This document shows, in pieces, positions 4,501-46,973 of a stretch of DNA of 64,000 nucleotides. The DNA comes from Pseudomonadota bacterium (GTDB lineage Bacteria; Bdellovibrionota_C; UBA2361; SZUA-149): the NCBI GenBank assembly GCA_029555385.1, contig JAKPSH010000288.1:26718-90717 (forward strand). Reading direction: 5' to 3'. A model generated the notes under the pieces. It had not been told where the DNA came from. It worked only from the letters and a program-made list of their open reading frames with translations, and did no database searches. How positions within the stretch are numbered: the stretch's first letter is position 1; each line of letters opens with the position of its first letter. The translations under genes were made by a program, and so were the position numbers.

Positions 4501-4603
4501 TGCCGCCTATAAGCGCATTGCCGCGCGGCTTGCCGGACTGGACATTACTCGCGTTACGGGCAAACTGTTTTTCCTGGACGTCCACCGGATAGTAGAGGTG
4601 TAG
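1511..4603 (+). CDS. addA: ATP-dependent helicase/nuclease AddA (UvrD/Rep superfamily 1 helicase with C-terminal nuclease)
   Basis: Walker A 'SAGTGKTYSL', 'ATTFTRKAAGEIKNRL', motif II 'LLDEFQDTS', 'TIHKAKGLEFDIVVL', C-terminal 'VIDYKSDRF' nuclease motif; 1030 aa. Confidence 0.85.
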   Translation: MSGAEVFYSVDIVRASAGTGKTYSLTQRLIQILAKGEKPERLLATTFTRKAAGEIKNRLFSRLAEDSLSGDPAAAKQSLELLRQLTNSQHQLKISTLDSFFLAVVRAFAFELGLPPNWRLIEDEEEERIRQASIGALLAKNSSKYLSLLLQLLSNGNYSRSVHERMLSSIAALHDVFRKSEPAPWYWFEAPAPLAPEALQAAISQLERAELPKKKNGEPLASYTNAVSKALDAARHGLWEDFIAQGIAKSLLSGSTRFDGKEIPPELTRSVRVLIKQAQAVLLRKLENRTRSTAALIGAYTEVFDKRKLTHRVINFADLTYLLRCRIASNDQQEFYYRLDAELPHILLDEFQDTSAEQWNVLEPLVAEIAAKAGAEHSFFCVGDVKQAIYGWRGGVSEIFDGLLGRFPQFESTLRSLDKSYRSSQTVIDLVNLVFGSLSDNPALEGSDGAYREAAQSWSKDFCLHQTQRTDLAGFAALREVSSGTDNMRDSIPQRTAELIKDLVHRAPGAGIGVLVRTNRSIPNILLALRHPDIGIFASQEGGNPLTDSPAVRTVLALFRLADHPGDSAAAFLIESSPLHSIFGTDSTGGLRSRIADQGFGKTVNEIAACAAAHASHMDALRLRRLVELAYMYDSRATGRMDDFVRFVETKKVEDPRAAQVRVMTIHKAKGLEFDIVVLPELDAPLCGSSRPPLLVSGDNPLTSPNRVVCYPKKELRQLSPQLQEIYRTCLVEEIKEEFSVLYVALTRARHAVYMLSADTKKNGVSFSSILRAAAPKQQMPHAQEIVFEIGDRLWHRQHPEMEKRPVPEDEQLAPAAPTISLPPAPERTRALLRQTPSALEGGTEVRLADRLQLASSAAMTRGIVLHAFFETIQWLEGIVPDPEALRKIAARHGASGAAIAQLVDYFCALLKHPVAIELLAKTSPARAGREHEVFCELPFAVREGDRVLTGTIDRLVIELKDGKPCGAEVIDYKSDRFSGPVEELLQKKTDFYRPQLAAYKRIAARLAGLDITRVTGKLFFLDVHRIVEV

Positions 4604-4623
4604 CTGAGTTATTGACAAATGCG

Positions 4624-4642
4624 CCAGGAAAGCATTTCCTGG
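4624..4642. promoter_or_regulatory. 8-bp-stem palindrome/hairpin (CCAGGAAA-GCA-TTTCCTGG) directly after addA stop, preceded by TTGACA
   Basis: Perfect inverted repeat read directly; lies in the 85-bp addA/ArgA-like intergenic gap. Confidence 0.3.
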
Positions 4643-4687
4643 ACGACGCCGAATTAAGACAAACAGGACATACCCGATTACGCGGCT

Positions 4688-5803
4688 ATGAAATACATTC
4701 AAGCCAAACTACTCGATGCGCTGGAGATGTTCCAGTATTCCTACCGCTTCCGGGATTCCCTTTTTGTCCTCTTTCTTCATCCTGATGTTCCGCTCGAGAG
4801 CATCTTGACTGACTTGAAGCTGCTTCAGTCGTCGCACATTACCGCAATGCTCGTCTGCCGTGATCACAACGGACTTGACGTTAAGCTGAAAAAGTTGACG
4901 GAGCGCGGGCTGCGGTTCTGGCACATTCCGCTGAGCACCGCCCAAAGCGCACGCGGCGAAAAGGCGAGGAAAATTACCTCGGCGTGCACCAACAACATCA
5001 TCCCTGTCCTGGCACTGCCTGTAATTGAAAGCCAATCACCCGGCGAACTTTGCCAAGAGGCCCTTGCGCTTGCCGAAATGTACGATGCAGACAAATTCTT
5101 TTACATTTCTCCGGAACGTGGATTAAGCGTTAAGGGAGTGCTTCAATCCCATCTTTCTCCGAGCGAACTTGACAATATCTTGTCCGAAGCACAAGCACTG
5201 AATATTGATCGCACCTTGCTGGGACTCTTGCGCCAAACGAGTACAGAAAGCGACCTTGAAATCGTACTGCTGGAAGGAGCAAGCGGCAGTCTGTTTCAAG
5301 AAATCTTCACCCACCGTGGACGAGGCACGTTGCTGACTAACGAATATCCGAACATAATCCGCCGGGGACGACTGCGCGATGTGTTTGATATCTCCCGCCT
5401 GCTGCGTCCTTACATCGAAGACGGCACCATCCTGCCTGCATCTGAAGACGAAGTAGCTGAACAAATCAACAGCTATTTTGTCTACACGGTGAACAATGCA
5501 ATTGTTGCCGCAGCGCAGCTTGTCGACTACGGCACGGCGGCAGCGTTATCCAAGTTCTGCACTCTGCCGCGTTATCAGGGCAAGGGCCGGGCGCGGAAAC
5601 TGGCAAAAAAGATGATTGCCGCAGCCAAAGCCCAGGATAAGGAACGCGTGTTTGCCTTAAGTATCTCGCCCCGAATGTGGTCGTTTTTTGCGAGGTTAGG
5701 CATGCGGGAAGTGCCGCGCGAGACTCTTCCCGATGAATGGAAAAAAGATTACGATTTTTCCCGGCCATCAAGAGCATTTGCACTGGAGCTGCGCACTAAC
5801 TAG
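4688..5803 (+). CDS. ArgA-like amino-acid N-acetyltransferase (shortened amino-acid-kinase-like N-domain + C-terminal GNAT)
   Basis: 'LFQEIFTHRGRGTLLTNE' and 'YQGKGRARKLAKKMIAAAKAQ...VFALSIS' align with the E. coli ArgA linker/GNAT region; 371 aa. Confidence 0.6.
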   Translation: MKYIQAKLLDALEMFQYSYRFRDSLFVLFLHPDVPLESILTDLKLLQSSHITAMLVCRDHNGLDVKLKKLTERGLRFWHIPLSTAQSARGEKARKITSACTNNIIPVLALPVIESQSPGELCQEALALAEMYDADKFFYISPERGLSVKGVLQSHLSPSELDNILSEAQALNIDRTLLGLLRQTSTESDLEIVLLEGASGSLFQEIFTHRGRGTLLTNEYPNIIRRGRLRDVFDISRLLRPYIEDGTILPASEDEVAEQINSYFVYTVNNAIVAAAQLVDYGTAAALSKFCTLPRYQGKGRARKLAKKMIAAAKAQDKERVFALSISPRMWSFFARLGMREVPRETLPDEWKKDYDFSRPSRAFALELRTN

Positions 5804-9139: not shown

Positions 9140-10942
9140 TTACTGCACTTGTTTCATTTCTGTAGAGAAATTCACATTCCACGAGAATTTTTCACCACCG
9201 CGGGCGTTCTGCGTGCCTTTGATATTCAGCTTAACTTTGCCGCCGTCCTTGAGGTCGCCTTCCAGGACCTTCAGCTCGCCTTCCCTAAGATTAGCAGTTT
9301 GCCGAGCAAAGCTAATCTGATCAAGACTGCCGGGGAAAAAGAAAGACCCGATTTTATCCCGCGTAAAATAAACCGTATAGCCATTCAAGTTTTCTGCGCT
9401 GAGCTGCGTCGCACCAAAACGAAAGTCAAAGAACAAAACTAGGTTAGGACGTTTGTTGTTCACATACTGCCAAAGCACTTTATTCTTACGCACCTGCTCC
9501 TTCTCTTCCGGTGAAAGCTCGCTTGTATAAAAGCCCACGGCCAAGTCGTTTTGCTGGGGGTAATAAAGAGCAATTGCCGTAGCGAAATCCGCTATCGTAC
9601 TGCCGGCGCTGGCCTGCATATAAGGTCCTTCCGGTTCTTTCGCCGTTTCTTTATCCTTATCGCCCGCCTTGGCGGCGCCAGCCGTCGTGTCTTGGGAATC
9701 CGCCGGACCGGGCTCCGGCTGCGCAAAAACATCCAGCAGCGGCGTATCGAACACTAAATCCCAGTTAAATTTAGTCGAAGTCTGATCGAGGACTTTGGTT
9801 CCTTCATGACGAAGCCGGCCTTGGATGAACTCGCCTTCAGCCAGGAATCCGCGAAGGGCGAATAATTGATCCGTCTTCTCCGGGCTTACCACATAGTAAA
9901 AGCCTTCTTTATCGTTTGGACCGCCGAATTCCAGTGCTGCTTCGGGATTGCGATAAAATACCACCCCGTAACGGACGATATTGTTCAACTCCAAAGACGT
10001 CGCCGCTCTGTTCAAATAGAGCGCGGCGGTAACAACCGGCTTTTTCTGCGGCACCGCCAGCAGCGACTTGTTTTTTCTCATCATCTCGCGATCGTCAGCT
10101 CCGAGCGTGCTGGGGAAGTAGCCAACTTCGATGGTGTTATCCATCTTGTTCCATAACGCAACGACTGCTGCCGCATTCGTCGAGTCATAAGCCACTTTGG
10201 CCGTAACCGGCACGACAACCGCAGGCGAACTAATGCGCAAATCCCAAAAAACACGAACCGCCGGACCTTGCTCGACTTGCTGCTGAGCATCCTGGCGCAA
10301 TGCGGCATAAACAACCGCCGGCTGGTCGAAACGGCAGCCGATGGTCACAATACCCGACGCATCCGGAAATTCCATGCTCAGATACTCGGGAGCACCCTCC
10401 GGATTGCGATTGATGAAAACTTGGTAACGCTCAATCTCTGCTTGCTCGCAGGCGGAGCCGCTTTTCTTTAAGGCAATAAGAAACATGATATCCGGAGAGA
10501 CTTGCGTCAGATCGGAGAAGCTCTGCGCCTTAGCGAGTTGTTCCAGAACTTCCCGCGCCAGCGGAGTGCGGAAAAAACCAATTTCAAGCCGCCGCTGTGC
10601 CGGGTTATACAACGCATAAGATGCTGCCGGGACAATAAGCGCTTGATCGACTTGCGCACTGCCCTGCGTAATAACCTTGATATCTGCCGGTGTCAGAACC
10701 GCAGCCAGATCAAATGTAAAGGTTTCCGCCGGAGCGCTCGCCTCGGGGCTGCCCCCCGGACCGGATGACAGCCGTCCAAACAGGACTATAAGCAAGATAA
10801 CAATCAGGAGGACGACAACGACGGAGAAAGTCACAAACCAGCGAGGGATTCGTGATTCTTTAGTCTTACCCTCTTGAGTCTTTGCCGCATCAGCAGTACT
10901 CGCTGCTGCTCCCTGTCCTTCTTCTGGATTGCTCTCTTCCAT
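9140..10942 (-). CDS. Single-pass membrane protein with five internal roughly 70-100 aa repeats, unknown function
   Basis: N-terminal TM 'WFVTFSVVVVLLIVILLIVLF'; repeated motif 'YALYNPAQRRLEIGFF', 'VVALWNKMDNTIEVGYF', 'VFYRNPEAALEFGG', 'IALYYPQQNDLAVGFY', 'GYTVYFTRDKIGSFFF'. Confidence 0.6.
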   Translation of the reverse strand: MEESNPEEGQGAAASTADAAKTQEGKTKESRIPRWFVTFSVVVVLLIVILLIVLFGRLSSGPGGSPEASAPAETFTFDLAAVLTPADIKVITQGSAQVDQALIVPAASYALYNPAQRRLEIGFFRTPLAREVLEQLAKAQSFSDLTQVSPDIMFLIALKKSGSACEQAEIERYQVFINRNPEGAPEYLSMEFPDASGIVTIGCRFDQPAVVYAALRQDAQQQVEQGPAVRVFWDLRISSPAVVVPVTAKVAYDSTNAAAVVALWNKMDNTIEVGYFPSTLGADDREMMRKNKSLLAVPQKKPVVTAALYLNRAATSLELNNIVRYGVVFYRNPEAALEFGGPNDKEGFYYVVSPEKTDQLFALRGFLAEGEFIQGRLRHEGTKVLDQTSTKFNWDLVFDTPLLDVFAQPEPGPADSQDTTAGAAKAGDKDKETAKEPEGPYMQASAGSTIADFATAIALYYPQQNDLAVGFYTSELSPEEKEQVRKNKVLWQYVNNKRPNLVLFFDFRFGATQLSAENLNGYTVYFTRDKIGSFFFPGSLDQISFARQTANLREGELKVLEGDLKDGGKVKLNIKGTQNARGGEKFSWNVNFSTEMKQVQ

Positions 10943-11650: not shown

Positions 11651-12757
11651 TTACTGCAACCCCGAAGCGTCTTTAGGCATTATTGTCACTTCCACACGGC
11701 TGCGCAGCGGACGAACGGCGGCAAGCGCCCATAAACGCTGAACAAGCTCATCGTTGAGAATTACGTTTGCTTCCAAAACAGTTTTGCCGTCACGCGCGAC
11801 GATCGGCTCAATGATCAGCATACCTTCACGCAGCTCACCAAGCTCAACCAAGAACCGGCGTGCTCCCCATTCCTCGGCGCGCCGGTGAGCCTCCAGCGTG
11901 CTGCCAGATGCTGGACGTCCGCCGGAAGCAGAAGTCTCCGTCTGCTGTGGCGGAACAGCCGACGCGAGCTGAGCATTCTGCAGCGTTACGTGCGCGGTTA
12001 CTGCTTCTGCAAGCATTTGCATCACAGCTTTGCGCACATTTTCACAGGCAATTGGATAATCATGTCTTTTGAAATAATGAATGGCCCGATGTGCGCCATT
12101 TGGATCCCAATACCGGTAGCGCCAACAGCTTCGCGATATCAGCTCAACCCCCAGGACGATTTGCCCGCCAATAGCCTCCGGCGAGGCAACGTCTTTAGCT
12201 GTGCGGCGGAGAAGCGCTGCGGCGGATGCAAGAATATCCTCAACTCTTGCGTCACCGATATTTTTCCCGACAAAAGATGCATTGGCCATGAATTCTTCGG
12301 CGAGGATCTCGGCTGCTTCATTGCTGAAATGGCTAACACAATCCTGCCGCAAAGCGGTCTGCTTACCCACGCGCTGTTCCCACTGCGCAAAAATCGCGGC
12401 AGTGCGAATAGCCCGGTGCTGCCCAGCATCAAGCGCAAGCATGTTAGCTATCGCTGATGAAACAAACACCGAACGCCGGAGATGAAGCCCGGCGTCTGTT
12501 CCGGCGGTGCTGCGCAAAAAGGCGGCGACCGCTTCCGGCAGCTCGCCGGGAGGCGCAAGAATATCGTCGACGAAATCATCGCTATGGTGCGCAATGGCAA
12601 ATACTTCACCGCCGCAGCTATTCTTTAATTTTGCCGGATCGGGATTAGCGCGGATTCTCTGCCGAATCTGCTCTGTACTGTCCTCAACAGGACCCCGGAC
12701 TCCCCGGCGAGCTGCAAGCCGTGAAGGATTCTCCTCCGGAAGCACAATGGCTCGCAC
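11651..12757 (-). CDS. Hypothetical cytoplasmic protein (no motif recognised)
   Basis: Long ORF with coding-like composition; no nameable family. Confidence 0.45.
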   Translation of the reverse strand: MRAIVLPEENPSRLAARRGVRGPVEDSTEQIRQRIRANPDPAKLKNSCGGEVFAIAHHSDDFVDDILAPPGELPEAVAAFLRSTAGTDAGLHLRRSVFVSSAIANMLALDAGQHRAIRTAAIFAQWEQRVGKQTALRQDCVSHFSNEAAEILAEEFMANASFVGKNIGDARVEDILASAAALLRRTAKDVASPEAIGGQIVLGVELISRSCWRYRYWDPNGAHRAIHYFKRHDYPIACENVRKAVMQMLAEAVTAHVTLQNAQLASAVPPQQTETSASGGRPASGSTLEAHRRAEEWGARRFLVELGELREGMLIIEPIVARDGKTVLEANVILNDELVQRLWALAAVRPLRSRVEVTIMPKDASGLQ

Positions 12758-16705: not shown

Positions 16706-16731
16706 CATCGCCGGGAGCGCTCCCGGCGATG
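16706..16731. terminator. Perfect 26-bp palindrome CATCGCCGGGAGC|GCTCCCGGCGATG immediately 3' of the minus-strand sigma factor gene
   Basis: Exact reverse-complement arms of 13 bp; on the minus strand it is followed by TGTTTGAGG. Confidence 0.4.
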
Positions 16732-16741
16732 GTAAAGAATT

Positions 16742-17590
16742 TTAGGCCGCCTTGGTTTTGGCCTTGATGACGGCTGCCGGCTTGCGCTCGCGGCCTGCCA
16801 CGGGCCGGCGGCGGCTGCGGCGGCGCGCACTGGCACTGCGCATATTCGCACTGCGCTCGACAAGGGCCGTTTCGGCTATTGTTTCTTCCTGCTGGTGTTC
16901 CTGCTCTACGGTTCCACCGAGCAGGTCACGCAGCCGGTCGAGAGCTGTCTTCTTTACTCGCGAAATATGGCAGCGGCTATAGCCCAAGGAGCGGGCAATA
17001 TCGACAAGCGGCTCTTCTTCGGAGAACGAACGTCCAACAATCTCTTTTTCCAGCGTATCAAGCTTTGTCACGGCAGCGCGGCATTGATTGATTCTTTCCT
17101 TGCGCAGCAGCTCATGCTCCGGCGTCATAATATCGCGCTGGGTGAAGAGAAAATGGTCCGGAACAAAAGGCGTGTAGCCGCTCGCCGCAAGATACTGCCA
17201 ATCCCCCGTCTCGATGCCGTTGTTTTGCGCATAAGCCATGAACATACTGCTGGCTTGAGCTGCCCTCGTGACGGCACGCACAAGATGTCCTCGCAGATGG
17301 TAAAAAAGGAAAGTCATGAAGGTGGCGCCGTGTTCATCACTGAAGCGCCTTGCCGCTTCACAAAGCGCAAGATCGACGATGCTGTCGATTTCATCTGCCG
17401 GCATCCGTACGCGCCATCTGCGCAGAATGCTTCGCGCAAGCTTGCGTCCGTTTTCGCGGTGACTAAGTATTAGCTGAGCGACCTGCCGCTCATTGGCTTC
17501 AGTGCTCTTCTTTTCGGCTTGTTTCTTTTTGGTCGACTGAGAAACTACTGTTTTCTTGAAAGCAACCGCCCGAACAACCCCCCGTTTCAT
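16742..17590 (-). CDS. Sigma-70-family sigma factor, group 3 (FliA/sigma-28-like), with Lys-rich N-terminus and Arg-rich C-tail
   Basis: Region 2 'IDSIVDLALCEAARRFSDEHGATFMTFLFYHLRGHLVRAV'; region 4 'EIVGRSFSEEEPLVDIARSLGYSRCHISRVKKTALDRLR'; start set at the ATG preceded by GGAGGA (track start 17650 also possible). Confidence 0.7.
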   Translation of the reverse strand: MKRGVVRAVAFKKTVVSQSTKKKQAEKKSTEANERQVAQLILSHRENGRKLARSILRRWRVRMPADEIDSIVDLALCEAARRFSDEHGATFMTFLFYHLRGHLVRAVTRAAQASSMFMAYAQNNGIETGDWQYLAASGYTPFVPDHFLFTQRDIMTPEHELLRKERINQCRAAVTKLDTLEKEIVGRSFSEEEPLVDIARSLGYSRCHISRVKKTALDRLRDLLGGTVEQEHQQEETIAETALVERSANMRSASARRRSRRRPVAGRERKPAAVIKAKTKAA

Positions 17591-17887
17591 GCTCCTCCAC
17601 CCCCTGGAAAACCCCCAAACGACGGGAAATAACCCGGCTTTGGGCCGCACACTGCATTAATAACCCCACGAAATGTGGTTTATTTGAATTCCACCAACAA
17701 CACTCTCTACTCGATAAAATGAGCAAAATCGCTTCGCTACCGGGATAAGGCCCTGATATTATTGGGCTATCGCCCTCAGTATCTAGATCAGGACAAGAAA
17801 ATAGCTCGAGAAGGATAATTGACGCGCCGACTAACCAGGTAGGACAATTCAACAAAGCGCCACTGTGTTCCGTAGAATGGGGAACTG

Positions 17888-18754
17888 ATGAGCACACCAA
17901 ACGAGTATGCAGCATTTCCAGCGGGAAGCGACGAACTAATCGAAAAGATAGTCGCCGAAAACTTAGGATGGGCTACGAGCATCGCGAAGGCCGTTGCGCG
18001 CGCGTGGAACATGGACTGGCAGCTTGATGGACTGGACGGCGGCGCCTACGAAGCATTGCTGTTTTGCGCCCGGCGCTACGATGCCACCAGAGGCGTGCCG
18101 TTTCGCGGCTACGCCCGCCGCCGTATTCATGAAGCGTGCACGGAAGAAGCTCGCAAGTCCAAGACCTGGCAAATGGGAACCGGCACAAACTCTGAAGTGG
18201 AACAGGAAGCCCGGGAAATTTCGGCCAAGTTATTTGATTTGTTTCCGGAATTACGCGACGGATACCTGCCAATCAGCGAAAGCGAAGACGATGCGGATAT
18301 TACGGTGCGCAGCTCCATTAGACAGATGCTGACGGGAGCGAGCTTAATTGCTGCTTTTCAAAGCTCGCCGAGCGAAAATCCGGAACTGGCCATTGAATAT
18401 AAACAGCTCCTGATTCATTTAGCGCAGCTTGAACCGGTCCACCAAGAAATTATCTGGGCTATTTACTACAAGGGACAGTCCATGCGGGCACTGGCCGAAG
18501 AGTGGCAGATTGATGATTTATCCGTGATTCGCGAGCACAAAGAAATCCTCGCTAATCTCTGCTCGCGCATCGAAGCGCCGAAATCAAGGGCAATCCGCCG
18601 GCTTAAGATCCGCCGCGGCCTGCGCACTATCGCACAGCAGCTTCGCCGGAACAAAGAAGACGGGCCGTTTTCGAAATTTCTCGCCGAAACTGCGGTGCTT
18701 ATTTTTGCACCCCTGGCGGCCCTTTTTGCCTGGCTGGCAAAGCTGATCGTTTAA
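17888..18754 (+). CDS. Sigma-70-family sigma factor, group 3, with C-terminal hydrophobic tail anchor
   Basis: Region 2 'AYEALLFCARRYDATRGVPFRGYARRRIHEA'; region 4 'QEIIWAIYYKGQSMRALAEEWQIDDLSVIREHKEIL'; last 25 aa 'FLAETAVLIFAPLAALFAWLAKLIV' form a predicted TM helix. Confidence 0.7.
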   Translation: MSTPNEYAAFPAGSDELIEKIVAENLGWATSIAKAVARAWNMDWQLDGLDGGAYEALLFCARRYDATRGVPFRGYARRRIHEACTEEARKSKTWQMGTGTNSEVEQEAREISAKLFDLFPELRDGYLPISESEDDADITVRSSIRQMLTGASLIAAFQSSPSENPELAIEYKQLLIHLAQLEPVHQEIIWAIYYKGQSMRALAEEWQIDDLSVIREHKEILANLCSRIEAPKSRAIRRLKIRRGLRTIAQQLRRNKEDGPFSKFLAETAVLIFAPLAALFAWLAKLIV

Positions 18755-18810
18755 ACCCGTAACCAAAACTATTGTGAACACTCAGAAATAGATTAGGACG
18801 GAGGAAGCAG

Positions 18811-19137
18811 ATGGTAAGAAAGATAGGTGACAAGCCGGGAGCTGCGGGCACTTCTTCCATTCAGTCGACGCGCAGCATAGAAAGCACCAAGATCGGCGAA
18901 GTCGAGCAGGTCAAAGCTGCTGATAGCCGAAGCGGTGTGGGCGCGGTGCGGCGGTCGACCCGTCAACTAACACCCGAACAACAGCAAGAACTGTTGGCGA
19001 TGATCAACGAAGAAGCTGATCGCATGTTCGACGAAGGGACGCTGCCTAGGTCCAAAAAAGACACCGTAAAAGGCGCCGTGCGCATGGCCATCGAAGCCAG
19101 CATGGTCGAGGAAGAAGAAACGAAAAAGAAAAAATAG
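18811..19137 (+). CDS. Small charged hypothetical protein (108 aa) downstream of the sigma factor gene
   Basis: Strong RBS GGAGGAAG 5 nt upstream of ATG; Ser/Thr-rich N-terminus, acidic helix 'LTPEQQQELLAMINEEADRMFDE', K/E tail. Confidence 0.55.
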   Translation: MVRKIGDKPGAAGTSSIQSTRSIESTKIGEVEQVKAADSRSGVGAVRRSTRQLTPEQQQELLAMINEEADRMFDEGTLPRSKKDTVKGAVRMAIEASMVEEEETKKKK

Positions 19138-19488: not shown

Positions 19489-20595
19489 TTACGCTGCGGC
19501 TCTTAATAACCCCCCAGTCCTCGTCGTCCGTTCAACCAGCGCATAACTCGAGCGTATGACTTCGCGGATTGGTGTGCTGCTGCGCTGCGAGAGCGCGTTA
19601 TAGGCCACGTATGCCAAGACCGCTTCCTGCAGGTGCTCTTCAAGAGAAAGAGAAAGCGTATCATGAAGCCACTTCAGAGCCGACAACGCGGGATTACTCT
19701 CCTCCGGCGCAAACTGCAGGCCGCACAGCGCAAGGAGCAGGATCGCCTGTTCCCGAACGACTGTCCCGGTTTCACGCCGAAACCAAGCTTCGTTCAGCAG
19801 CTCCGCAGCCGCACGTATATCCTGCTGGGTTTCCATGCCCAGATGAAGCAGCCACGGCAGAGCAAAACGCGCCCCTGCTTTGCTGCCAAGAAGCGGGATC
19901 AGCTTACCGGCGTCAGTCGAATCGTCCGGAAACACCGCTCGCATTGCCTGATTAAGCCCCGGGCTCTGACCATGGGAATCTGCCTCGACCACGGATACAC
20001 TTAGCTCGTTCGCGAAACGCGGATTCATCATGCTAACTACGATTCCTGCGCGATTGCGGACCACCTCAACGGAGTGCTTACGTTCTCCCTGCCAATTCGC
20101 TTGCAACAGAATCTGGTCAGGCTGCTCTAACGCCATCTTTAATGCCTCCACGGCAGAGCCGCCAATCGCACAAAGCAAGCGCAAAGCAGGCCAAAACCAG
20201 GTTTCGTGAGGTGAGCTGTCAGTAAGCCAGGTCACAACCGTCCTCGCAGCATCGCCTGCCCCTTGACGGAAGTCATCTGTCGCAAGAAGCTCCGCAGCCA
20301 CGAGCCGCAACTCAGGCACGCAGGGGTGTCGCAGCGCACGCAAAATCAGCGCAATGTCCTCGGCTCCAACCACTTCGGAAGCCGCCTGGCCATGAAGTTG
20401 CACTATCGCTTGCCTAAGCCAGGAGATTGCTTCGTCTGTCGCCCCCCCGGCAATCACGTCAAGCCTTGCACGCGCTTCATCCAGACTACCGGCTTTCGCC
20501 AATCGGCCAAGTTCCTCCATCCCGGCCATGGCGATAAAACTGGCGTCATGACCAATCTGCTGAAAGGCTTTTCTTAGAGAACTCCCTTTGCACAT
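19489..20595 (-). CDS. HEAT/PBS-lyase-like repeat protein
   Basis: Repeated about 30-aa alpha-helical units with 'AA..LG.IG...A...L...L.D' periodicity (e.g. 'ALILRALRHPCVPELRLVAAELLATDD'). Confidence 0.5.
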   Translation of the reverse strand: MCKGSSLRKAFQQIGHDASFIAMAGMEELGRLAKAGSLDEARARLDVIAGGATDEAISWLRQAIVQLHGQAASEVVGAEDIALILRALRHPCVPELRLVAAELLATDDFRQGAGDAARTVVTWLTDSSPHETWFWPALRLLCAIGGSAVEALKMALEQPDQILLQANWQGERKHSVEVVRNRAGIVVSMMNPRFANELSVSVVEADSHGQSPGLNQAMRAVFPDDSTDAGKLIPLLGSKAGARFALPWLLHLGMETQQDIRAAAELLNEAWFRRETGTVVREQAILLLALCGLQFAPEESNPALSALKWLHDTLSLSLEEHLQEAVLAYVAYNALSQRSSTPIREVIRSSYALVERTTRTGGLLRAAA

Positions 20596-21347: not shown

Positions 21348-21743
21348 CTAGCGCGCGCGGCGCATGAAGGCGGTCAACAGCTTTTGCACATCATGATCAA
21401 CAACGGCGCCGCTGTTAATGGCACGGGCGACTTCACCAAGCACGGACTGCGCCCGCTGGGCTTCGCCGCTGCCAAAGAACGCCGCACAAAGCGCAAGCTT
21501 GACCTGAATCTCCCAGTCAGCCAACTGCAAAGCAAGGCGAAGCTGCGTGATCGCGTCTTGATATAAACCACGTTCGATTTTGACCAAGGCTAAGCCGATG
21601 CGCGCCGCTGTCTGCCCGTTGTCCACCGCGGCGAGCCCCCCGAAAACACGCTCAGCCGGCGTCAGATAGCCCATTTCGTAGTACATCCGGCCCAGCTCAT
21701 AAATCGCGGTTAACTCTTCTTTTGCGTAATCAGCCATCGCCAC
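21348..21743 (-). CDS. Small TPR-repeat protein (131 aa)
   Basis: Three TPR-like helical pairs ('YELGRMYYEMGYLTPAERVF', 'AARIGLALVKIERGLYQDAITQLRLAL', 'VKLALCAAFFGSGEAQRAQSVL'); size and architecture resemble TPR-type secretion chaperones. Confidence 0.55.
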   Translation of the reverse strand: MAMADYAKEELTAIYELGRMYYEMGYLTPAERVFGGLAAVDNGQTAARIGLALVKIERGLYQDAITQLRLALQLADWEIQVKLALCAAFFGSGEAQRAQSVLGEVARAINSGAVVDHDVQKLLTAFMRRAR

Positions 21744-21755
21744 CGCATCACTGTG

Positions 21756-22052
21756 TCATTGATTATTCCTTGTGCCGATGGACAGCCATTGCACCACTTG
21801 ATTCAACATCGCCTGTTCGCTTGCGAGCTGGGTATTCTGCTCCGGATCGCTCTCTGTCGCCGCAACCAGTTCCTCATATTTGCGCTCGATTCCAGATGCC
21901 AGTTTCGGCAAGTCAGTCAACTCGCCGAGTTTAGGCAGAAGCACGGCAAGGGGCACAACGGAAAGGCGTTCTTTGCTCCTGAGCGGATCTGGCGCGGTGT
22001 CATCACCATCTTGATCAAGGCCGTCCGGCCTGCCTTTCCTATTCCACCACAT
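21756..22052 (-). CDS. Hypothetical acidic protein (98 aa) immediately downstream of truncated flhB
   Basis: ORF only; no FlhB C-domain motifs (no NPTH). Confidence 0.35.
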   Translation of the reverse strand: MWWNRKGRPDGLDQDGDDTAPDPLRSKERLSVVPLAVLLPKLGELTDLPKLASGIERKYEELVAATESDPEQNTQLASEQAMLNQVVQWLSIGTRNNQ

Positions 22053-22061
22053 GACCCATCC

Positions 22062-22940
22062 CTATCTTAGTTTCGATTTCGCCCCCGGCGGCGCTTCTCC
22101 GCGCTCCCGGTGCGCGCTTTTCATTTCCGGGGCTTGGTCGGTCTCCCGGTATTCGGCCTCCAGCTCGGCCCGGCTCATCCGGTGTTCCTGCCGGAAGGCA
22201 AGCCATACCGCAACATAACCGCACACACCGGCAAAGAGGGAGAAAAACAGCGCAGTCTGCCAAACTGACATGAATAAACCTTTCGCCCAATCAAGTCTCG
22301 CACTTAGACTTAAGGCTGTCAAAAACTCTGTATTATCGGACAGCGCCGTGGAGACGACACCATTTCCCGGAGCGTTTCCGCCATCCAGCATCACGGAGCG
22401 TCCCACACCGGCTGCCGGCATTTTCGCAGGAAGAACGGTATACAGCAAAACGCAAGACGCTGCGGCCCAGACAGCGACAACCACGGCACCCGCACCGGCA
22501 GCGAGCAGGCGTTTTCTTGCACCATCCCAGATCCAGCCGCCGGATTTGAAGAAACGCGCCATACCCGGCTGAAAAAGCGCAAAGGAAAACAAGAATTTCG
22601 TCTGTAATGCACCAAGCAACAGCACTATCGCAAAAAACGGCACGACAAACGATAAAACTGTTTTGGCCAAAGCCCGGCTAATTTGCGCAGCACTCAGCGC
22701 TAAAGCCTTTGAGGCTGGTTCGTTTCGCAACCATTCGCTGCCGGATGAAGCGCTCCAAGCATCCCGGGCTAAAGCGGCAATGCTGGCTGCCGCCACAGGC
22801 AAACTGACTATGGCTCCCACAAGCGCGCCCAGCACCACGGCAAAACACATCACCGCTTTGCTGTACGGAACAGTCCCCGAACTGCGCAGCCGCTCTAATT
22901 TAAGCGCCGTAGGCGGAAACCTTTTCATTTCCTCAGCCAT
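22062..22940 (-). CDS. flhB: FlhB/SctU-family export-gate protein, membrane domain only (C-terminal cytoplasmic NPTH domain absent)
   Basis: N-term 'MAEEMKRFPPTALKLERLRSSGTVPYSKAV' matches the FlhB 'EKTE.PT.KKL...R..G.V..SKE' start; 4 TM segments; ends at '...EMKSAHRERGEAPPGAKSKLR*' where the FlhB linker begins; no NPTH in any frame downstream. Confidence 0.65.
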   Translation of the reverse strand: MAEEMKRFPPTALKLERLRSSGTVPYSKAVMCFAVVLGALVGAIVSLPVAAASIAALARDAWSASSGSEWLRNEPASKALALSAAQISRALAKTVLSFVVPFFAIVLLLGALQTKFLFSFALFQPGMARFFKSGGWIWDGARKRLLAAGAGAVVVAVWAAASCVLLYTVLPAKMPAAGVGRSVMLDGGNAPGNGVVSTALSDNTEFLTALSLSARLDWAKGLFMSVWQTALFFSLFAGVCGYVAVWLAFRQEHRMSRAELEAEYRETDQAPEMKSAHRERGEAPPGAKSKLR

Positions 22941-22962
22941 AATCAATTCCCAAGCGAGATAA

Positions 22963-23856
22963 TCATTGCGGCTCCTCGCCCGTGGACGGATGCACATCCG
23001 CAGGCTTCGGCGCCGGAGCCGTCTGAACTTTCATTTGCGCAAGCACGCTGCCCGCGCGTTTCGGCATCAAGGACTCCGAAATGAGCTGTGACAAATCGCC
23101 AGCAATTGAATAAAGACAGAGAGCCAAAACAATCAGCACACACACTGAGCGCACCGCCGCCGCGATATCTGCCTGAAATGCCTGCGCCAAATATCTCTTC
23201 CATGGCAGGTGCACAAAATCAATAATCAGGGCCGCGGCAAACATGGGCAGCGCAAAAACGAAAGCAACGGCCAGAGCCGCTTTGGCGCCGTGCGCGATCA
23301 GCTCCGCCACCTGCGGCGTCACGGCAAATTGCACATAACCCGCCATGCTTTCCAGATACGGAAAAGCAAATAAAGATCGTCCAAAAAATGCCCATAAGAA
23401 AGGAAAATCCGGACTGGCGCAAAGCAGAGCCGCAACGAGCAAAAGCACAACCGTCTCCACCGGCGGCGCGCTTTGTTCCGGAAGTGCCCGGTTCGAGTGT
23501 TTTGCAAAGGTCACTGCGCTGAGCCAGCGGGCAAAAGTCTGGGCAGCATAGCCGGCAAAACCCGCGGCAACCGCGAGAACTAAACCAATTCCGGCCTCAA
23601 CAATCAGCACGCCAGCCCGCGGCATTACTGGCGCCGTTGCGGAGACACGTCCCGCCTCAATCGCCAGTAAAACATCGAACAGCGATAAATCCCGCAAAGC
23701 AGGCACATAGGGGATAAAGAAAACGGTAAAACCAACAGCCAGAACAAAACGCACACTGAGCGGCACTACCCGCCACGGAAGGATACTTAAAGCGCAGAAA
23801 AACACGGAGATGCGCACAGTTAAAGCGACCAGGCAGAGCACGGCAAACGAAGTCAC
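22963..23856 (-). CDS. fliR: Flagellar/T3SS export-gate protein FliR/SctT
   Basis: Six or more TM helices, position between fliQ and flhB, about 297 aa with extended C-tail. Confidence 0.7.
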   Translation of the reverse strand: MTSFAVLCLVALTVRISVFFCALSILPWRVVPLSVRFVLAVGFTVFFIPYVPALRDLSLFDVLLAIEAGRVSATAPVMPRAGVLIVEAGIGLVLAVAAGFAGYAAQTFARWLSAVTFAKHSNRALPEQSAPPVETVVLLLVAALLCASPDFPFLWAFFGRSLFAFPYLESMAGYVQFAVTPQVAELIAHGAKAALAVAFVFALPMFAAALIIDFVHLPWKRYLAQAFQADIAAAVRSVCVLIVLALCLYSIAGDLSQLISESLMPKRAGSVLAQMKVQTAPAPKPADVHPSTGEEPQ

Positions 23857-23877: not shown

Positions 23878-24132
23878 TTATTGATAGAGCGAAAGATTGC
23901 CCCACGCACTTGCTGTAAAAGCGAACAACTCTGAGAAAAAACGCCCGAGTGCAAAATACCCCACGAGAAACAGCCCGGCCAGTTTTCCCGTAAAACTAAT
24001 GACCTGGTCGTCGATTTGCGCAGTTACACGCAGCACCGCCGCAACAAGCGCACCGCAAATTACCGCTAAAAGCACCGGAACACTAAGGTGCACTGTGAAG
24101 AGCAGCGCGTTGATTATTTGCGTTGTATCCAT
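23878..24132 (-). CDS. fliQ: Flagellar/T3SS export-gate protein FliQ/SctS
   Basis: 84-aa two-helix hairpin membrane protein 'MDTTQIINALLFTVHLSVPVLLAVICGALVAAVLRVTAQIDDQ' typical of FliQ. Confidence 0.75.
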   Translation of the reverse strand: MDTTQIINALLFTVHLSVPVLLAVICGALVAAVLRVTAQIDDQVISFTGKLAGLFLVGYFALGRFFSELFAFTASAWGNLSLYQ

Positions 24133-24138
24133 CGCCGC

Positions 24139-24846
24139 CTAAAAGTAAGTCGAAACCAGATTGCCTGTGATTAATGTCCAGCCGTCAAGCACGACAAACA
24201 AAAGCAGTTTAAACGGAAACGCCACCATCGCCGGATTCATCCGCTCGAGACCTACCGCAGTAAGCGCCGTCGCCATGAATAAGTCGAGCACGAGGAACGG
24301 CAGGAAAAGAGTCAGCCCCGCAGCAAACGCCTCTTTCAGCTCAGAAACAATGAAGGCGGGACCGAGCACTCGCCACGAGCTGGTCAGCGGCTCAGCCTGA
24401 ACATCTCCCCGCGGCTGCTGAGCCGGCGCGGCTCCCGCGTTTGCCGCGTCAAAACGCCCCGCCAAATCAGCAAACCGCTCGACTGTTTCTTTGTGCGCTT
24501 GCGCGCGCAAAAACGTCTTCCACTTTTCGAGTCCGGCATCAAAGGCTTCCGCGCGGACTTTGTCGGTAACCGGAGTGCCGGCCGCCTTAAGCACGTCATC
24601 AATAGCCCCGGACGAAGCAGCCAGCGTGGGATACATCACAAAGAATGAAAGAGCCAGTGCCAGAGAACCGACCACAAAGGAAGAGGCAAGGCTGCACAAG
24701 CCCAAGCCAAGCCGCAGGATGCTCAGCACTGTGACAATTTTCACATAAGCACTAAAGGCCAAAGCAAGCAGCACCACAAGAAAGATGGTGAAGCCGGACA
24801 GACCTAAGCCTGCAAATACTGATGTTGAGTCCACGCTGCGCCGCAA
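24139..24846 (-). CDS. fliP: Flagellar/T3SS export-gate protein FliP/SctR
   Basis: 'LFLPFLVLDLFMATALTAVGLERMNPAMVAFPFKLLLFVVLDGWTLITGNLVSTY' matches the FliP signature 'IPFLIIDLVIASVLMALGMMMVPP...LPFKLMLFVLVDGWQLLVGSL'. Confidence 0.85.
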   Translation of the reverse strand: MRRSVDSTSVFAGLGLSGFTIFLVVLLALAFSAYVKIVTVLSILRLGLGLCSLASSFVVGSLALALSFFVMYPTLAASSGAIDDVLKAAGTPVTDKVRAEAFDAGLEKWKTFLRAQAHKETVERFADLAGRFDAANAGAAPAQQPRGDVQAEPLTSSWRVLGPAFIVSELKEAFAAGLTLFLPFLVLDLFMATALTAVGLERMNPAMVAFPFKLLLFVVLDGWTLITGNLVSTYF

Positions 24847-24983
24847 TATCCGTTCAAGATTCCCAGAGGGGCCTGTCGCAAAATGCAGCCCCTGCTGACA
24901 GCTTAAAGCCTTAGTCTGTGTTGGACAAGGTAAAGAATCTCCGGCATCAATATAGCAGCAAAATTATCCGGTAAAATGAGCGA

Positions 24984-26780
24984 TTAAACGGTCAGCTCTT
25001 CCAGCTCGTCAACAAGAGAGCCAAACAAAGTGACCGCAGCTTCGATGGGAGCCGGTTCGGTGATTCGCACGCCGGCATCAGCTAGCAGCTCGGCGGGATA
25101 TTTGCTTGCTCCGGCCTTAAGAAAATCCAGATAACGCCTGCGCGGCTCGGTGTCACCGCTCATCACTTGCGCCGCCAGACTAATTGCCGCAGCAAGGCCG
25201 GTCGCATATTTGTAAACGTAGAACGCAGAGTAGAAGTGCGGAATGCGCAGGCATTCCAAGTCGTCCCATTCGCCCAGCTCCACAGCGGGGCCGAAATACT
25301 TATATAAAAGTTCCCGGTACACCTCACGGAACACAGCAACCGTGAGCGGTTTATTATTCTCAGCCAGGTCATGAATAATTTTCTCAAATTCAGCAAACAT
25401 CACCTGGCGGTAAAAAGTCGCCTTGATATCATCAAGCTGTTCGTTAACGAGAAACGCCAGCATCTTACGATCGCCGGCATACTTCTCCTTCAGCCTGCGC
25501 ATCAATAGCTGCTCATTAAAAGTCGAAGCCACTTCCGCTACAAATATCGAATAACGGTAGTCTTGAAATTTCTGGCTGCGCTGCGAATACCAGCTATGCA
25601 TTGAGTGTCCCGCTTCATGGAGCAGGGTAAATACTGAACCAATGTCATCCTCTTTATAGTTGAGCAAGATATAGGGATAACTGTCGAAACAACCCGAGGA
25701 GTATGCACCGCTGCGTTTTCCCTTATTCTCGTAGCGATCGACCCATCGTTGATGCGTCAGCCCCTGGACAAGCACGTCCACATATTCGGGGCCTAGCGGC
25801 TGAAGCGCCTCTGCGGCCAGCAACACGGCTTCTTCGTAGGTGTGCCTGATCGACACTTCAGGAACAAGAGGCACGTAAGTGTCGTAAATCCGCAACTTGT
25901 TCAGTCCGAGGCGTTTACGGCGCAGTTCATAATAACGATGCAGCGGCTCAAGGTTGCGTGAGACAGCCGCAAGCAGATTATCATAAACCGCGGGGGCGAT
26001 ATTGTCGGCGAATAACGCCTGGGTCAACGCCGAATCGTAGCGCCGGGTCTGCGCCAGAAAAACATCTTTCTTAACTGAACCAGCGAGCGCAGCGGCAATC
26101 GTGTTTCTGTGCTGATCATATACCCGGTAATATTCGTTAAAAGCCCGTTCGCGCACCGAACGGTCATGGTTCTTGAGAAACAGAACGAAGCTCGCATGAC
26201 TGAGCGATTTTTTTTCACCGTCCACTTCAATCTCGGGAAATGCAAGATCAGCGTTGCTGAGCTGCGAAAAGATACGTCCGCTTGCACCAAAAATTTCAGT
26301 GGCTGACGCAATAAGCCTCTCCTCTTCTGCAGAAAGAGTATGCGGCTTATAGCGCATAATATCGGCCAGCATCCTCCGTAACGCGCTCAGCTCCGGCGCA
26401 CGGAGATAACGCGCCAGCGTCTCTTCATCCAAGGACAGCAGCTCTGGCACAAGGAAGCTGGAAAGCGTGGCAAACCGTGTGTAAACATTGGTGGCTTTTT
26501 CCAGGCAAGCCTGATGCTCCGGGTCAGACGTATCCGAATCGCTGAGCAAGTGTGCATAAGTGTAAAGACGTTCAGCAACCCGGCTCAGCTCGAGACAGCA
26601 GCGAAACGCCTCGCCGGTTTTCTGCGCCGATTCCTTAAGTGTTGACCGAAAAGCAGATACCTCGTGAGCCGCGTTCTCGAAGTGAGCAAACTCTTCGGTC
26701 CATTCGGACGCACTGGCATAAAGGGAAGTCAGGTCCCATTGGTGGGCCTCGGGAACGGCTTTTCGTTCTGGAAGCGACAC
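24984..26780 (-). CDS. pepF: Oligoendopeptidase F (M3B family)
   Basis: Zinc motif 'TLLHEAGHSMHSWYS' (HEXXH), about 598 aa, M3B-like layout. Confidence 0.9.
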   Translation of the reverse strand: MSLPERKAVPEAHQWDLTSLYASASEWTEEFAHFENAAHEVSAFRSTLKESAQKTGEAFRCCLELSRVAERLYTYAHLLSDSDTSDPEHQACLEKATNVYTRFATLSSFLVPELLSLDEETLARYLRAPELSALRRMLADIMRYKPHTLSAEEERLIASATEIFGASGRIFSQLSNADLAFPEIEVDGEKKSLSHASFVLFLKNHDRSVRERAFNEYYRVYDQHRNTIAAALAGSVKKDVFLAQTRRYDSALTQALFADNIAPAVYDNLLAAVSRNLEPLHRYYELRRKRLGLNKLRIYDTYVPLVPEVSIRHTYEEAVLLAAEALQPLGPEYVDVLVQGLTHQRWVDRYENKGKRSGAYSSGCFDSYPYILLNYKEDDIGSVFTLLHEAGHSMHSWYSQRSQKFQDYRYSIFVAEVASTFNEQLLMRRLKEKYAGDRKMLAFLVNEQLDDIKATFYRQVMFAEFEKIIHDLAENNKPLTVAVFREVYRELLYKYFGPAVELGEWDDLECLRIPHFYSAFYVYKYATGLAAAISLAAQVMSGDTEPRRRYLDFLKAGASKYPAELLADAGVRITEPAPIEAAVTLFGSLVDELEELTV

Positions 26781-45935: not shown

Positions 45936-46973
45936 ATGGGAAATAAATTTTCGGCCCTTCAAACACAAATCTTCTCAACACAGGCATTAAATGAAATCCA
46001 AGAAGCCCTGCATGAGCTGCATGAGGAATCAAAAGATTTAGGGTTCGGCCCGGATATCACACAGCACGTCAATCAGAGACTCTTGAACAAGGATGGCTCT
46101 TTTAATGTGCGCCGCGAAGGATACAACTTGTTTCGATCGCGCAGCATTTATCACGCACTGCTTAACTCAAAGTGGCAGCATTTTTTTGCTATTATCTTTT
46201 GCGCTTATATTGTGATCAACTTTTTTTTTGCTGCTTTGTTTTTTGCTCTTGGGCCAGAAGCTCTAGCCGGATCTGACGCGACGGGCTTGGCGCTTTTTTT
46301 TGATTGTTTCTTTTTCAGCGTCCAAACTTTTTCGACGGTCGGTTACGAAAAATTGCATCCGATAAGTTTGACGGCGAATTTCTTGGTTACACTCCAGTCA
46401 TTGGTCGGACTGCTTGGTTTTGCCCTGGCGACTGGATTGCTTTTTACCCGCTTTTCCCGGCCAAGCTCAAAAGTAATCTTCAGCAAGTTTGCGCTTATTG
46501 CACCGCAGCAAGACGGACTTGCCTTTGAATTCCGCGCAGTCAACGCAAGACCGAACATGCTGCTGCACTTGGAAGCTCGTGTAGTAATGAGCCGGCTGGA
46601 ACGGCAAGGCGGCTGCGTGCGGCGCAAGTTCTACGATTTAGAGCTCGAACGCCGGCAAATTATGTTCTTTCCGCTGCACTGGACGATCGTCCACCCGATT
46701 GATCAAGACAGTCCCCTGTGCGGAGCAACCAGGGAAGAACTTGCCCAATCCGATGCAGAATTCCTGGTCATGCTCAGCGGCATGGACGATACTTTTTGGC
46801 AGACAGTCTACACATGGACCTCTTATAAGCACAACGAGATCGTTTGGGGCGGCGCGTTTGACAACATTTTAGAGACATGTCCGGACGGCAGCGTTAAGAT
46901 AAACTTGGACCGTGTGCATGAATTCCACCGCGTAGAAATCGCTCCGGCGCTCAAAGCAGCCAATAGCTCATGA
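45936..46973 (+). CDS. Inward-rectifier-type (KirBac-like) potassium channel with atypical filter TVGYE
   Basis: N-term 'RLLNKDGSFNVRREGYNLFRSRSIYHALLNSKWQHFF', pore 'FFFSVQTFSTVGYEKLHP', cytoplasmic Ig-like C-domain; codon usage markedly AT-richer than neighbours. Confidence 0.8.
   Translation: MGNKFSALQTQIFSTQALNEIQEALHELHEESKDLGFGPDITQHVNQRLLNKDGSFNVRREGYNLFRSRSIYHALLNSKWQHFFAIIFCAYIVINFFFAALFFALGPEALAGSDATGLALFFDCFFFSVQTFSTVGYEKLHPISLTANFLVTLQSLVGLLGFALATGLLFTRFSRPSSKVIFSKFALIAPQQDGLAFEFRAVNARPNMLLHLEARVVMSRLERQGGCVRRKFYDLELERRQIMFFPLHWTIVHPIDQDSPLCGATREELAQSDAEFLVMLSGMDDTFWQTVYTWTSYKHNEIVWGGAFDNILETCPDGSVKINLDRVHEFHRVEIAPALKAANSS

Follow-up and report, generated by a model that had tools for sequence, protein, structure and literature searches.

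A lineage-wide cassette of two divergent sigma factors and a small partner protein in uncultured Bdellovibrionota, with a probable membrane tail anchor on one of the sigma factors

Do two sigma-factor genes that face away from each other, with a small gene behind one of them, form a regulatory module in their own right, and if so, is it a variant of a system that is already known? The question is raised by a 64,000-nt stretch of DNA, here called the window, from the genome of an uncultured member of the Oligoflexia/Bdellovibrionota. The genes concerned are sigA on the minus strand, which encodes a divergent sigma-70-family factor, sigB on the plus strand, which encodes a predicted three-domain sigma-like factor, and, downstream of sigB, a gene for a protein of 108 amino acids (aa) that we refer to as the small partner protein (Table 1). 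An earlier note, made by reading the letters of the window, had proposed that they form a self-contained module of two paralogous sigma-28-like factors and a possible regulator, set beside export-gate genes. We found that the three genes recur jointly in about 60 independent genomes. This recurrence is more than chance, and the cassette is lineage-wide in uncultured Bdellovibrionota/Oligoflexia, bacteria of the predatory type.

The layout of the locus largely agrees with its first description. All three open reading frames (ORFs) lie at the positions claimed for them (Table 1), the sigA frame spanning 16742-17650 when it is read up to a GTG codon, and the 237 nt that then separate it from sigB (17651-17887) are indeed AT-richer, with 44.7% GC against 53.4% for the window. 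The ATG at 17590 is nevertheless the likelier start of sigA, because it is preceded by GGAGGAG, the GTG has no ribosome-binding site and homologues align from the ATG region; its use extends the intergenic region to 297 nt. The small ORF follows sigB and has the strong ribosome-binding site attributed to it (GGAGGAAG, 3 nt 5' of the ATG), and only the gap needed correction, from 57 nt to the 56 nt that lie between the sigB stop and this ATG.

We scanned reference genomes for the cassette and obtained 63 loci, every one from metagenome-assembled genomes; a synteny analysis based on hidden Markov models then covered 63 non-redundant loci, the window included, and counted for each feature only loci with enough flanking sequence (56, 57 or 49). 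In all 56 of 56 loci the small ORF came directly 3' of sigB; the gap between them had a median of about 10 nt, and in 17 cases the two overlapped. sigA adjoined sigB on its upstream side in 55 of 57 loci, 52 of them divergent and 3 tandem, and the trio was kept in the loci with tandem sigA as well. At one locus, L003, it was intact without any type III secretion system (T3SS) gene within 10 kb. These arrangements show sigB and the gene for the ~108-aa protein to be one predicted operon, often translationally coupled, and sigA to be a separate predicted transcription unit, mostly divergent. The proposal that the small ORF is placed like a cognate regulator is borne out by its constant and often overlapping company with the plus-strand sigma gene, and the conservation in related genomes on which that proposal hung extends to all 56 loci.

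What kind of protein is sigB? By the curated sequence cutoffs of the sigma-factor models it falls short (PF04542, 17.3 against 24 bits; TIGR02937, 33.4 against 42.9 bits; no region-4 match), and its score of 26.7 bits places it outside the FliA/WhiG subfamily, for which the cutoff is 189.6 bits (TIGR02479/PRK06986). It belongs to a family of at least 496 members with 55-79% identity, whose profile gives a match to region 2 of FliA (E=3.4e-3) and whose alignment keeps the motifs of regions 2.1-2.4 and 4.2. The most conserved blocks of the family include the core-binding motifs and those for recognition of the -10 and -35 elements, namely DGLDGGAYEALLFCARRYDP, FRGYARRRIHEA and the region-4 helix-turn-helix. 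An AlphaFold2 (AF2) model of sigB reached a mean predicted local distance difference test score (pLDDT) of 80.6, and when it was searched with Foldseek the top 50 PDB matches were all sigma factors (sigma-28, sigma-32, WhiG, SigB and RpoS) with 220-270 columns aligned. The E-values of these matches were only 2e-3 to 0.6 and the global TM-scores were low, the latter because of domain orientation. Modelled in this way, sigB has a predicted three-domain sigma fold composed of sigma2, sigma3 and sigma4.

Beyond sigma4 the protein continues into a conserved basic linker of about 25 aa (LKIRRGLR...RRNKEDGPF in the window, LK(V/I)RRGLR...KRKKE.GPF in the family) and ends in a hydrophobic tail, which we characterised in 97 full-length members using 15-aa windows of Kyte-Doolittle (KD) hydropathy. 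Such a window reached a KD value of at least 1.6 in the tails of 95 of the 97 members, whereas values in the protein body did not exceed about 1.45. Uncharged runs had a median length of 19 aa, with a net charge of +6 before them and 0 after them and a median of 5 residues beyond; one third of the members end in Trp. Hydrophobicity is conserved along the tail and sequence is not. From these properties the tail is probably a membrane tail anchor, an uncommon feature in proteins of this class; no publication on a tail-anchored sigma factor was found in the literature that we searched.

The competing explanation that survives best, an unlikely one all the same and one that touches the tail alone, is that the C-terminal helix of sigB is an intramolecular autoinhibitory or partner-docking element, similar to those of ECF41/42, and that sigB is soluble. 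C-terminal regulatory extensions are well documented among extracytoplasmic function (ECF) sigma factors and provide a precedent for a tail that is no anchor (PMC8999054). AF2 models the tail helix with high confidence, and the uncharged run is shorter than 12 aa in 11 of the 97 members and shorter than 15 aa in 23, so that a true transmembrane anchor is not certain, about 11% of the tails being too short or charge-interrupted. Set against this are the free sequence and retained hydrophobicity of the tail, a change in charge from +6 to 0 that fits the positive-inside rule, and a position at the extreme C terminus that is often closed by Trp. Because of this combination of hydrophobicity, charge, position and terminal residue, we favour a lipid-facing tail anchor over a protein interface.

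The small partner protein belongs to a family of 102 members of 100-130 aa, none of which is annotated. An invariant start (MV(K/R)KI.G) is followed by a variable, low-complexity first half, with an N-terminal part rich in Ser, Thr, Gly and Lys, and then by a conserved second half (T..ER..LF.MVDEEADKLFG...LPE..K..V..AVKMAI.AG) that runs into an acidic end. The AF2 model, which is of low confidence, leaves residues 1-50 disordered (pLDDT below 50) and places helices at residues 55-72 and 80-107. It had been characterised as a Ser/Thr-rich protein with an acidic helix; Ser and Thr account for 17% of the residues, the net charge is +2 and only the extreme C terminus is acidic. We found no match to a Pfam family, to a PDB sequence or to a known fold (no fold had an E-value below 2). 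The FlgM signature is absent, as had been noticed: none of 43 members matched PF04316 at E<=1, and profile-profile alignment with hhalign returned a probability of 0.9% against a FlgM mini-profile, which was built from FlgM sequences that were validated as PF04316. A PDB sequence search with a Salmonella FlgM gave no match. Homology to FlgM was rejected on the Pfam and hhalign results, and the predicted likeness is one of architecture only, in small size, a disordered N terminus and a helical C-terminal half.

Less likely again than a soluble sigB, in our estimate, is that the small protein only shares transcription with sigB and has its role elsewhere, whether as a substrate or accessory of the T3SS, a nucleic-acid or ribosome binder, or a stabilising subunit of another complex. 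Its lack of homology to any anti-sigma family leans that way, as does a weak and non-specific mirror-tree signal, and a disordered N terminus rich in Ser, Thr, Gly and Lys would suit a secreted substrate too. The position of the gene speaks otherwise: it stands beside sigB in every locus, often with overlapping stop and start codons, even where no T3SS is nearby or sigA has been reoriented. Cognate regulators typically show such strict coupling to the gene of their sigma factor, and a cognate regulator of sigB is what we expect of the small protein because of this obligate adjacency, the short gaps and the overlaps.

The second sigma factor, sigA, passes the Pfam cutoff in region 4 (PF04545, 32.6 against 24.1 bits) and the TIGR02937 cutoff over residues 57-243 of the whole protein (50.9 against 42.9 bits). 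Region 2 remains below its cutoff (PF04542, 16.5 against 24 bits), with the region-2 block kept in the family consensus, where the canonical motifs of regions 2.1-2.4 and 4.2 are conserved. The nearest PDB relative is FliA (1rp3, E=2.6e-7, with region 4 aligned), and the score of 40.3 bits against the 189.6-bit cutoff again lies outside the FliA/WhiG subfamily. An exhaustive search of 1.84 billion representatives retrieved 109 relatives at E<=1e-30 and 903 at E<=1e-3; judged by sequence, the sigA family is small and isolated. Of the first description of the pair as sigma-28-like paralogues, what stands is membership of the sigma-70 family with FliA/sigma-28 as the nearest solved relative of both; what does not stand is membership of FliA/WhiG, whose cutoff neither reaches. 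Paralogy was overstated, as sigA and sigB align over 41 aa with 29% identity (E=0.004) and any common origin is ancient at best.

Both terminal extensions reported for sigA are present, the Lys-rich one at the N terminus (8 Lys in the first 35 residues) and the Arg-rich one at the C terminus (10 Arg in the last 45), and the architecture reads as a basic N-extension, sigma2, sigma4 and a basic C-tail (RRRSRRR) that ends in -KAA. The net charge of the C-extension is positive in 19 of 19 parsed members, with a median of +10. Of 57 genomes, 35 have a sigA that terminates in -AA and 46 one that terminates in -A, compared with 44 (7%) and 91 of 614 control ORFs, and upstream of the terminus lies a basic cluster of the RRxRRR type (16742-16760, minus strand, in the window). 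Substrates that ClpXP recognises by C-terminal degrons include ssrA-tagged proteins and CtrA, and by analogy the -AA end of sigA suggests a ClpXP-type C-terminal degron.

Which signals control the two transcription units? We identified an element upstream of sigA by footprint alignment with the closest relatives, followed by family-wide tests. In the form GAAGCR-N17-GAnTAG, read in the sense of sigA, it occurred in 31 of 57 loci against 0.76 in shuffled sequences, and in none on the antisense strand. Searched with a position weight matrix (PWM) of the element, the window gave a single strong site (score 24.1). Across related loci totalling about 983 kb, roughly 44 hits fell in the sigA-sigB spacer (33 by a positional rule and 11 more), compared with 7 weaker hits elsewhere (score 20.4 or less). 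The element is neither sigma-70-like nor canonical sigma-28, and its sequence and placement are best explained if one of the two sigma factors of the cassette recognises it.

The region before sigB is more varied. The weak sigma-28-like element of the window, which we regard as tentative, is partly conserved in L068-L070. Other sub-clades have a clear TAATG/TTAAG-N16-17-(TG)CCGATA, found in about 10-13 loci some 40-65 nt before the sigB ATG, and these elements match the FliA consensus of Bdellovibrio, TTAAG-N16-CCGATA (PMC3627812). That consensus precedes sigB in 2 of 61 loci when applied strictly and in 15 of 61, against 5.9 expected, when applied loosely; the enrichment is modest, and a sigma-28-type promoter for sigB is therefore claimed for a subset of loci. 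The strict Escherichia coli sigma-28 pattern, TAAA-N14-16-GCCGATAA, was not enriched upstream of either sigma gene, and looser elements of the type TAAA-N15-GCCGATAA occurred before sigB in about 10-15 of 61 loci. Reading GCTTC and CCGATA as a single compact element proved wrong.

A promoter motif common to the sigma genes and the secretion gene sctR, which the earlier note had called fliP, was not found; the region upstream of sctR has an element of its own. In the form TTGTCC-N17-TA(A/G)(G/T)CT it matched the window once, where 0.04 matches were expected, and it occurred once each in L009 (6809-6837), L011 (4705-4733), L070 (14741-14769) and L071 (14644-14672), always upstream of sctR. Separately, L015, L019, L062 and L063 share a conserved 12-mer, TCTTGCCGAAAT, at 30-56 nt ahead of the estimated start of sctR; it contains the sigma-28-like GCCGAAAT and may be coding sequence of the upstream gene.

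At the other end of the cassette, the perfect 26-bp palindrome described after sigA is present 10 nt past the stop codon. It folds into a hairpin with 11 bp in the stem and 4 nt in the loop (dG -32.6, z -3.7) and has no clear U-tract. In 29 of 57 relatives a GC-rich hairpin stands behind sigA (z < -2), in several cases with a T-run after it, and the sequences of these hairpins are unrelated to one another. Because unrelated hairpins fill the same place in these relatives, we read the palindrome as probably a terminator-type hairpin of sigA, and we rejected its interpretation as a regulatory operator.

The secretion genes near the cassette are identified by their profile matches as an injectisome, not a flagellum. 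Core T3SS genes of the injectisome type are adjacent in 28 of the 49 loci with room (~57%), so the link to export-gate genes holds for these loci, and the supposed fliP genes belong to an injectisome. Syntenic relatives add SctQ, SctJ of the lipoprotein-ring type (for which TIGR02544 is the best match) and an FHA/YscD-type SctD; SctJ, SctD and the class II TPR chaperone are injectisome-specific. Every component scores below its equivalog cutoff, which marks this T3SS as divergent. No flagellar genes were found in the 64-kb window.

These neighbours bear on whether the cassette is simply an ordinary flagellar FliA (sigma-28)/FlgM pair with a duplicated fliA. The nearest solved relative of both sigma factors is FliA, some relatives have GCCGATA-type -10 elements ahead of sigB, L003 carries a flagellin gene at 5 kb from the trio, and the small protein has the general architecture of FlgM. 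We nonetheless consider this very unlikely, given the distance of both proteins from the FliA/WhiG cutoff, the mere 903 representatives that sigA retrieves, the failure of every small-protein member against PF04316 and of the family profile against FlgM, and secretion genes that are of the injectisome type (SctJ, FHA-bearing SctD, LcrH-like chaperone) in a window free of flagellar genes. Least probable of all is that sigB has become a pseudo-sigma which has lost the ability to direct transcription and which, as a membrane-bound decoy or in the manner of an anti-sigma factor, sequesters sigA, core polymerase or the small protein: its scores under the Pfam and NCBIfam sigma cutoffs and the limit that a tether would set on its access to the chromosome agree with this, but DGLDGGAYEALLFCARRYDP, FRGYARRRIHEA and the region-4 helix-turn-helix are among the best conserved blocks of the family, a full three-domain sigma fold is predicted, and membrane-bound DNA-binding regulators and membrane-fused sigma factors are both known (PMC8999054).

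Tentatively, and short of calling it probable, we favour a reading in which the cassette comprises two FliA-derived, highly diverged sigma factors and a small partner that regulates sigB, combined with membrane tethering, a cascade, an unstable sigA and an output connected to the T3SS. The tail would hold sigB at the inner membrane. The small protein would keep sigB inactive or stabilised, with its two C-terminal helices bound to it, and its disordered N-terminal half would make it removable by export or by proteolysis, a FlgM-like logic without FlgM ancestry. Freed sigB would then drive the sigA promoter, or sigA might autoactivate from its own promoter, and the ClpXP-type degron would keep sigA short-lived. 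We propose that the two sigma factors act as a switch or cascade because sigA would be short-lived and one of the two would drive its promoter; the cascade would probably time a set of stage-specific genes that either contains the T3SS or responds to it.

Several observations weigh against this interpretation. The hydrophobic stretch is shorter than 12 residues or interrupted by charge in ~11% of sigB homologues, homology of the small protein to FlgM or to known anti-sigma factors could not be detected, and the mirror-tree analysis gives sigB no preference over sigA as the partner of the small protein. In the window's own clade the sigma-28-like element that precedes sigB is degenerate. The promoter of sctR is sigma-70-like in appearance, and no hit of the sigA PWM precedes T3SS genes in the ~983 kb of related loci. 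Nor is the link to the T3SS obligatory, as 21 of 49 loci have no T3SS within ~10 kb, and the source organisms are all uncultured. A more specific version, which we regard as improbable, would make sigB a tail-anchored three-domain sigma factor that acts at the inner membrane or after release from it, and the small protein an independently evolved, FlgM-like anti-sigma factor that is exported through the adjacent injectisome; secretion would free sigB to act on the sigA promoter and so start a two-sigma cascade for a programme of interaction with a host or prey.

Table 1. Coordinates of the cassette, its candidate control elements and neighbouring genes in the window
Feature	Position (nt)	Strand	Remarks
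sigA	16742..17590	-	282 aa, divergent sigma-70-family factor; ORF reaches GTG at 17650
sigB	17888..18754	+	288 aa, three-domain sigma-like factor (predicted)
Small partner protein	18811..19137	+	108 aa
Shine-Dalgarno of small ORF	18800..18807	+	GGAGGAAG, 3 nt before ATG
Hydrophobic C-terminal tail of sigB	18668-18751	+	residues ~261-288; probable tail anchor
sigA promoter-like element	17697..17739	-	GAAGCG (17735-17730), 17-nt spacer, GAGTAG (17712-17707), then GAGTGTTGTTGG
Conserved block	17691-17713	+	CCACCAACAACACTCTCTACTCG; includes part of the sigA element
Weak sigma-28-like element before sigB	17806..17834	+	TCGAG-N16-CCGACTAA, 53 nt before ATG; tentative
Perfect 26-bp palindrome	16706..16731	-	10 nt past sigA stop; probably terminator-type hairpin
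368-aa ORF	19489..20595	-	between cassette and T3SS operon; sub-threshold Pfam/NCBIfam matches only
TPR (tetratricopeptide repeat) chaperone	21348-21743	-	LcrH/SycD-like (1e-9) or SctY-like (2e-5)
Conserved ~98-aa ORF	21756-22052	-	beside TPR chaperone; unknown family; ~95-100 aa in relatives
sctU	22062-22997	-	injectisome export gate
sctT	22963-23856	-	injectisome export gate
sctS	23878-24132	-	injectisome export gate
sctR	24139-24846	-	injectisome export gate
sctRSTU promoter-like element	24900..24928	-	TTGTCC-N17-TAAGCT; sigma-70-like geometry, unlike the sigA and sigB elements

Other features of the neighbourhood are listed here for completeness. The TPR chaperone and the ~98-aa ORF that consistently accompanies it may be a SctY/SctX-like pair. 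In relatives L001, L070 and L071, SctQ, SctJ and SctD are encoded a few kb beyond sctR, where the window has an M3 oligopeptidase gene (24984-26780, minus strand); as the window holds only sctRSTU and the chaperone, the remaining injectisome genes must lie elsewhere in the genome. The 368-aa ORF between the cassette and the T3SS operon had no tblastn counterpart in 67 related loci; it is a genome-specific insertion, probably outside the module, and may encode an effector or be mobile. In L003, at 4182-5510 and thus some 5 kb upstream of the trio, there are a flagellin gene and a gene for an RsbW-like HATPase_c_2 protein, and given this flagellin gene at least some members of the clade are probably flagellated. 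Further along the window, 43839-45788 (plus strand) encodes a fusion of a Ser/Thr protein kinase with ankyrin repeats, a eukaryote-like architecture that makes a secreted effector plausible in an organism with an injectisome, and beside it lies a homologue of inward-rectifier K+ channels (IRK and IRK_C; 45936-46973, plus strand). Three ORFs had no Pfam match: 9140-10942 (minus strand, 600 aa), 11651-12757 (minus strand, 368 aa) and 47058-48140 (plus strand, 360 aa). The rest of the window consists of housekeeping genes.

Sigma/anti-sigma switches tied to secretion machines are textbook examples of sensing the assembly state of a nanomachine, with FliA-FlgM as the classic case. The present locus defines three unannotated protein families, with no Pfam family assigned to any of them, confined to an uncultured Bdellovibrionota clade with an injectisome, and because the clade carries an injectisome, interaction of these organisms with eukaryotic or bacterial hosts is probable. 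If our reading is true, a minimal tail anchor on a three-domain sigma factor would be a new mode of controlling sigma activity, not described for group-3 sigma factors. The highly specific sigA motif offers a testable handle on the circuit and could help to predict life-cycle regulons in genomes that are represented by metagenomes only.

How does the cassette relate to systems that are already known? It shares with FliA/FlgM a group-3, sigma-28-like factor and a partner of ~100 aa with a disordered N-terminal half and a helical C-terminal half, a genetic link to a type III export apparatus and, in some relatives, a GCCGATA-type -10 element before the sigB operon. FliA/FlgM has a single sigma factor, however, whereas the cassette has two, neither of which reaches the FliA family threshold; its partner is not detectably homologous to FlgM, its export apparatus is an injectisome, and FliA lacks a hydrophobic tail such as that of sigB. 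A second comparison is with Bordetella, in which BtrA (BspR), the anti-sigma factor of BtrS, is exported by the injectisome T3SS and couples secretion to transcription (PMC10732220); the more specific version given above assumes this mechanism. There, too, an alternative sigma factor and its partner are encoded with an injectisome locus, but BtrS is a two-domain ECF sigma factor without sequence relationship to the three-domain, FliA-like sigA and sigB, and unlike BtrS/BtrA the trio also occurs away from T3SS genes, whose operons lack the promoter motif of the cassette.

Membrane-fused ECF sigma factors (IutY/ECF243, ECF48, ECF52 and ECF53), which are released by regulated intramembrane proteolysis (PMC8999054), resemble sigB in having a hydrophobic or transmembrane segment C-terminal in the sigma polypeptide itself. 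By this likeness, a hydrophobic segment on sigB would imply control by sequestration at the membrane, possibly with proteolytic release. The ECF proteins consist of sigma2 and sigma4 with an anti-sigma domain fused to them and have substantial periplasmic parts, whereas sigB has a predicted three-domain fold, a linker of only ~25 aa, no anti-sigma or extracytoplasmic sensor domain and a median of 5 residues beyond its tail, for which reasons we describe it as a minimal tail-anchor design. In Bdellovibrio bacteriovorus, FliA is a global regulator of the attack phase, a sigma-28-type factor that has been recruited beyond flagella and directs a life-cycle programme (PMC3627812). The cassette occurs in the same phylum and has similar elements before sigB in some relatives; Bdellovibrio has one canonical FliA, in contrast to the two far more divergent sigma factors with extra termini and an obligate small partner in these uncultured lineages. 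The cassette is thus akin to FliA/FlgM, BtrS/BtrA, the membrane-fused ECFs and Bdellovibrio FliA, yet it is a member of none of them, since it falls below the FliA and FlgM thresholds and has neither the anti-sigma domain nor the sensor domain of the fused ECFs; it represents a previously undescribed variation on the sigma/partner theme.

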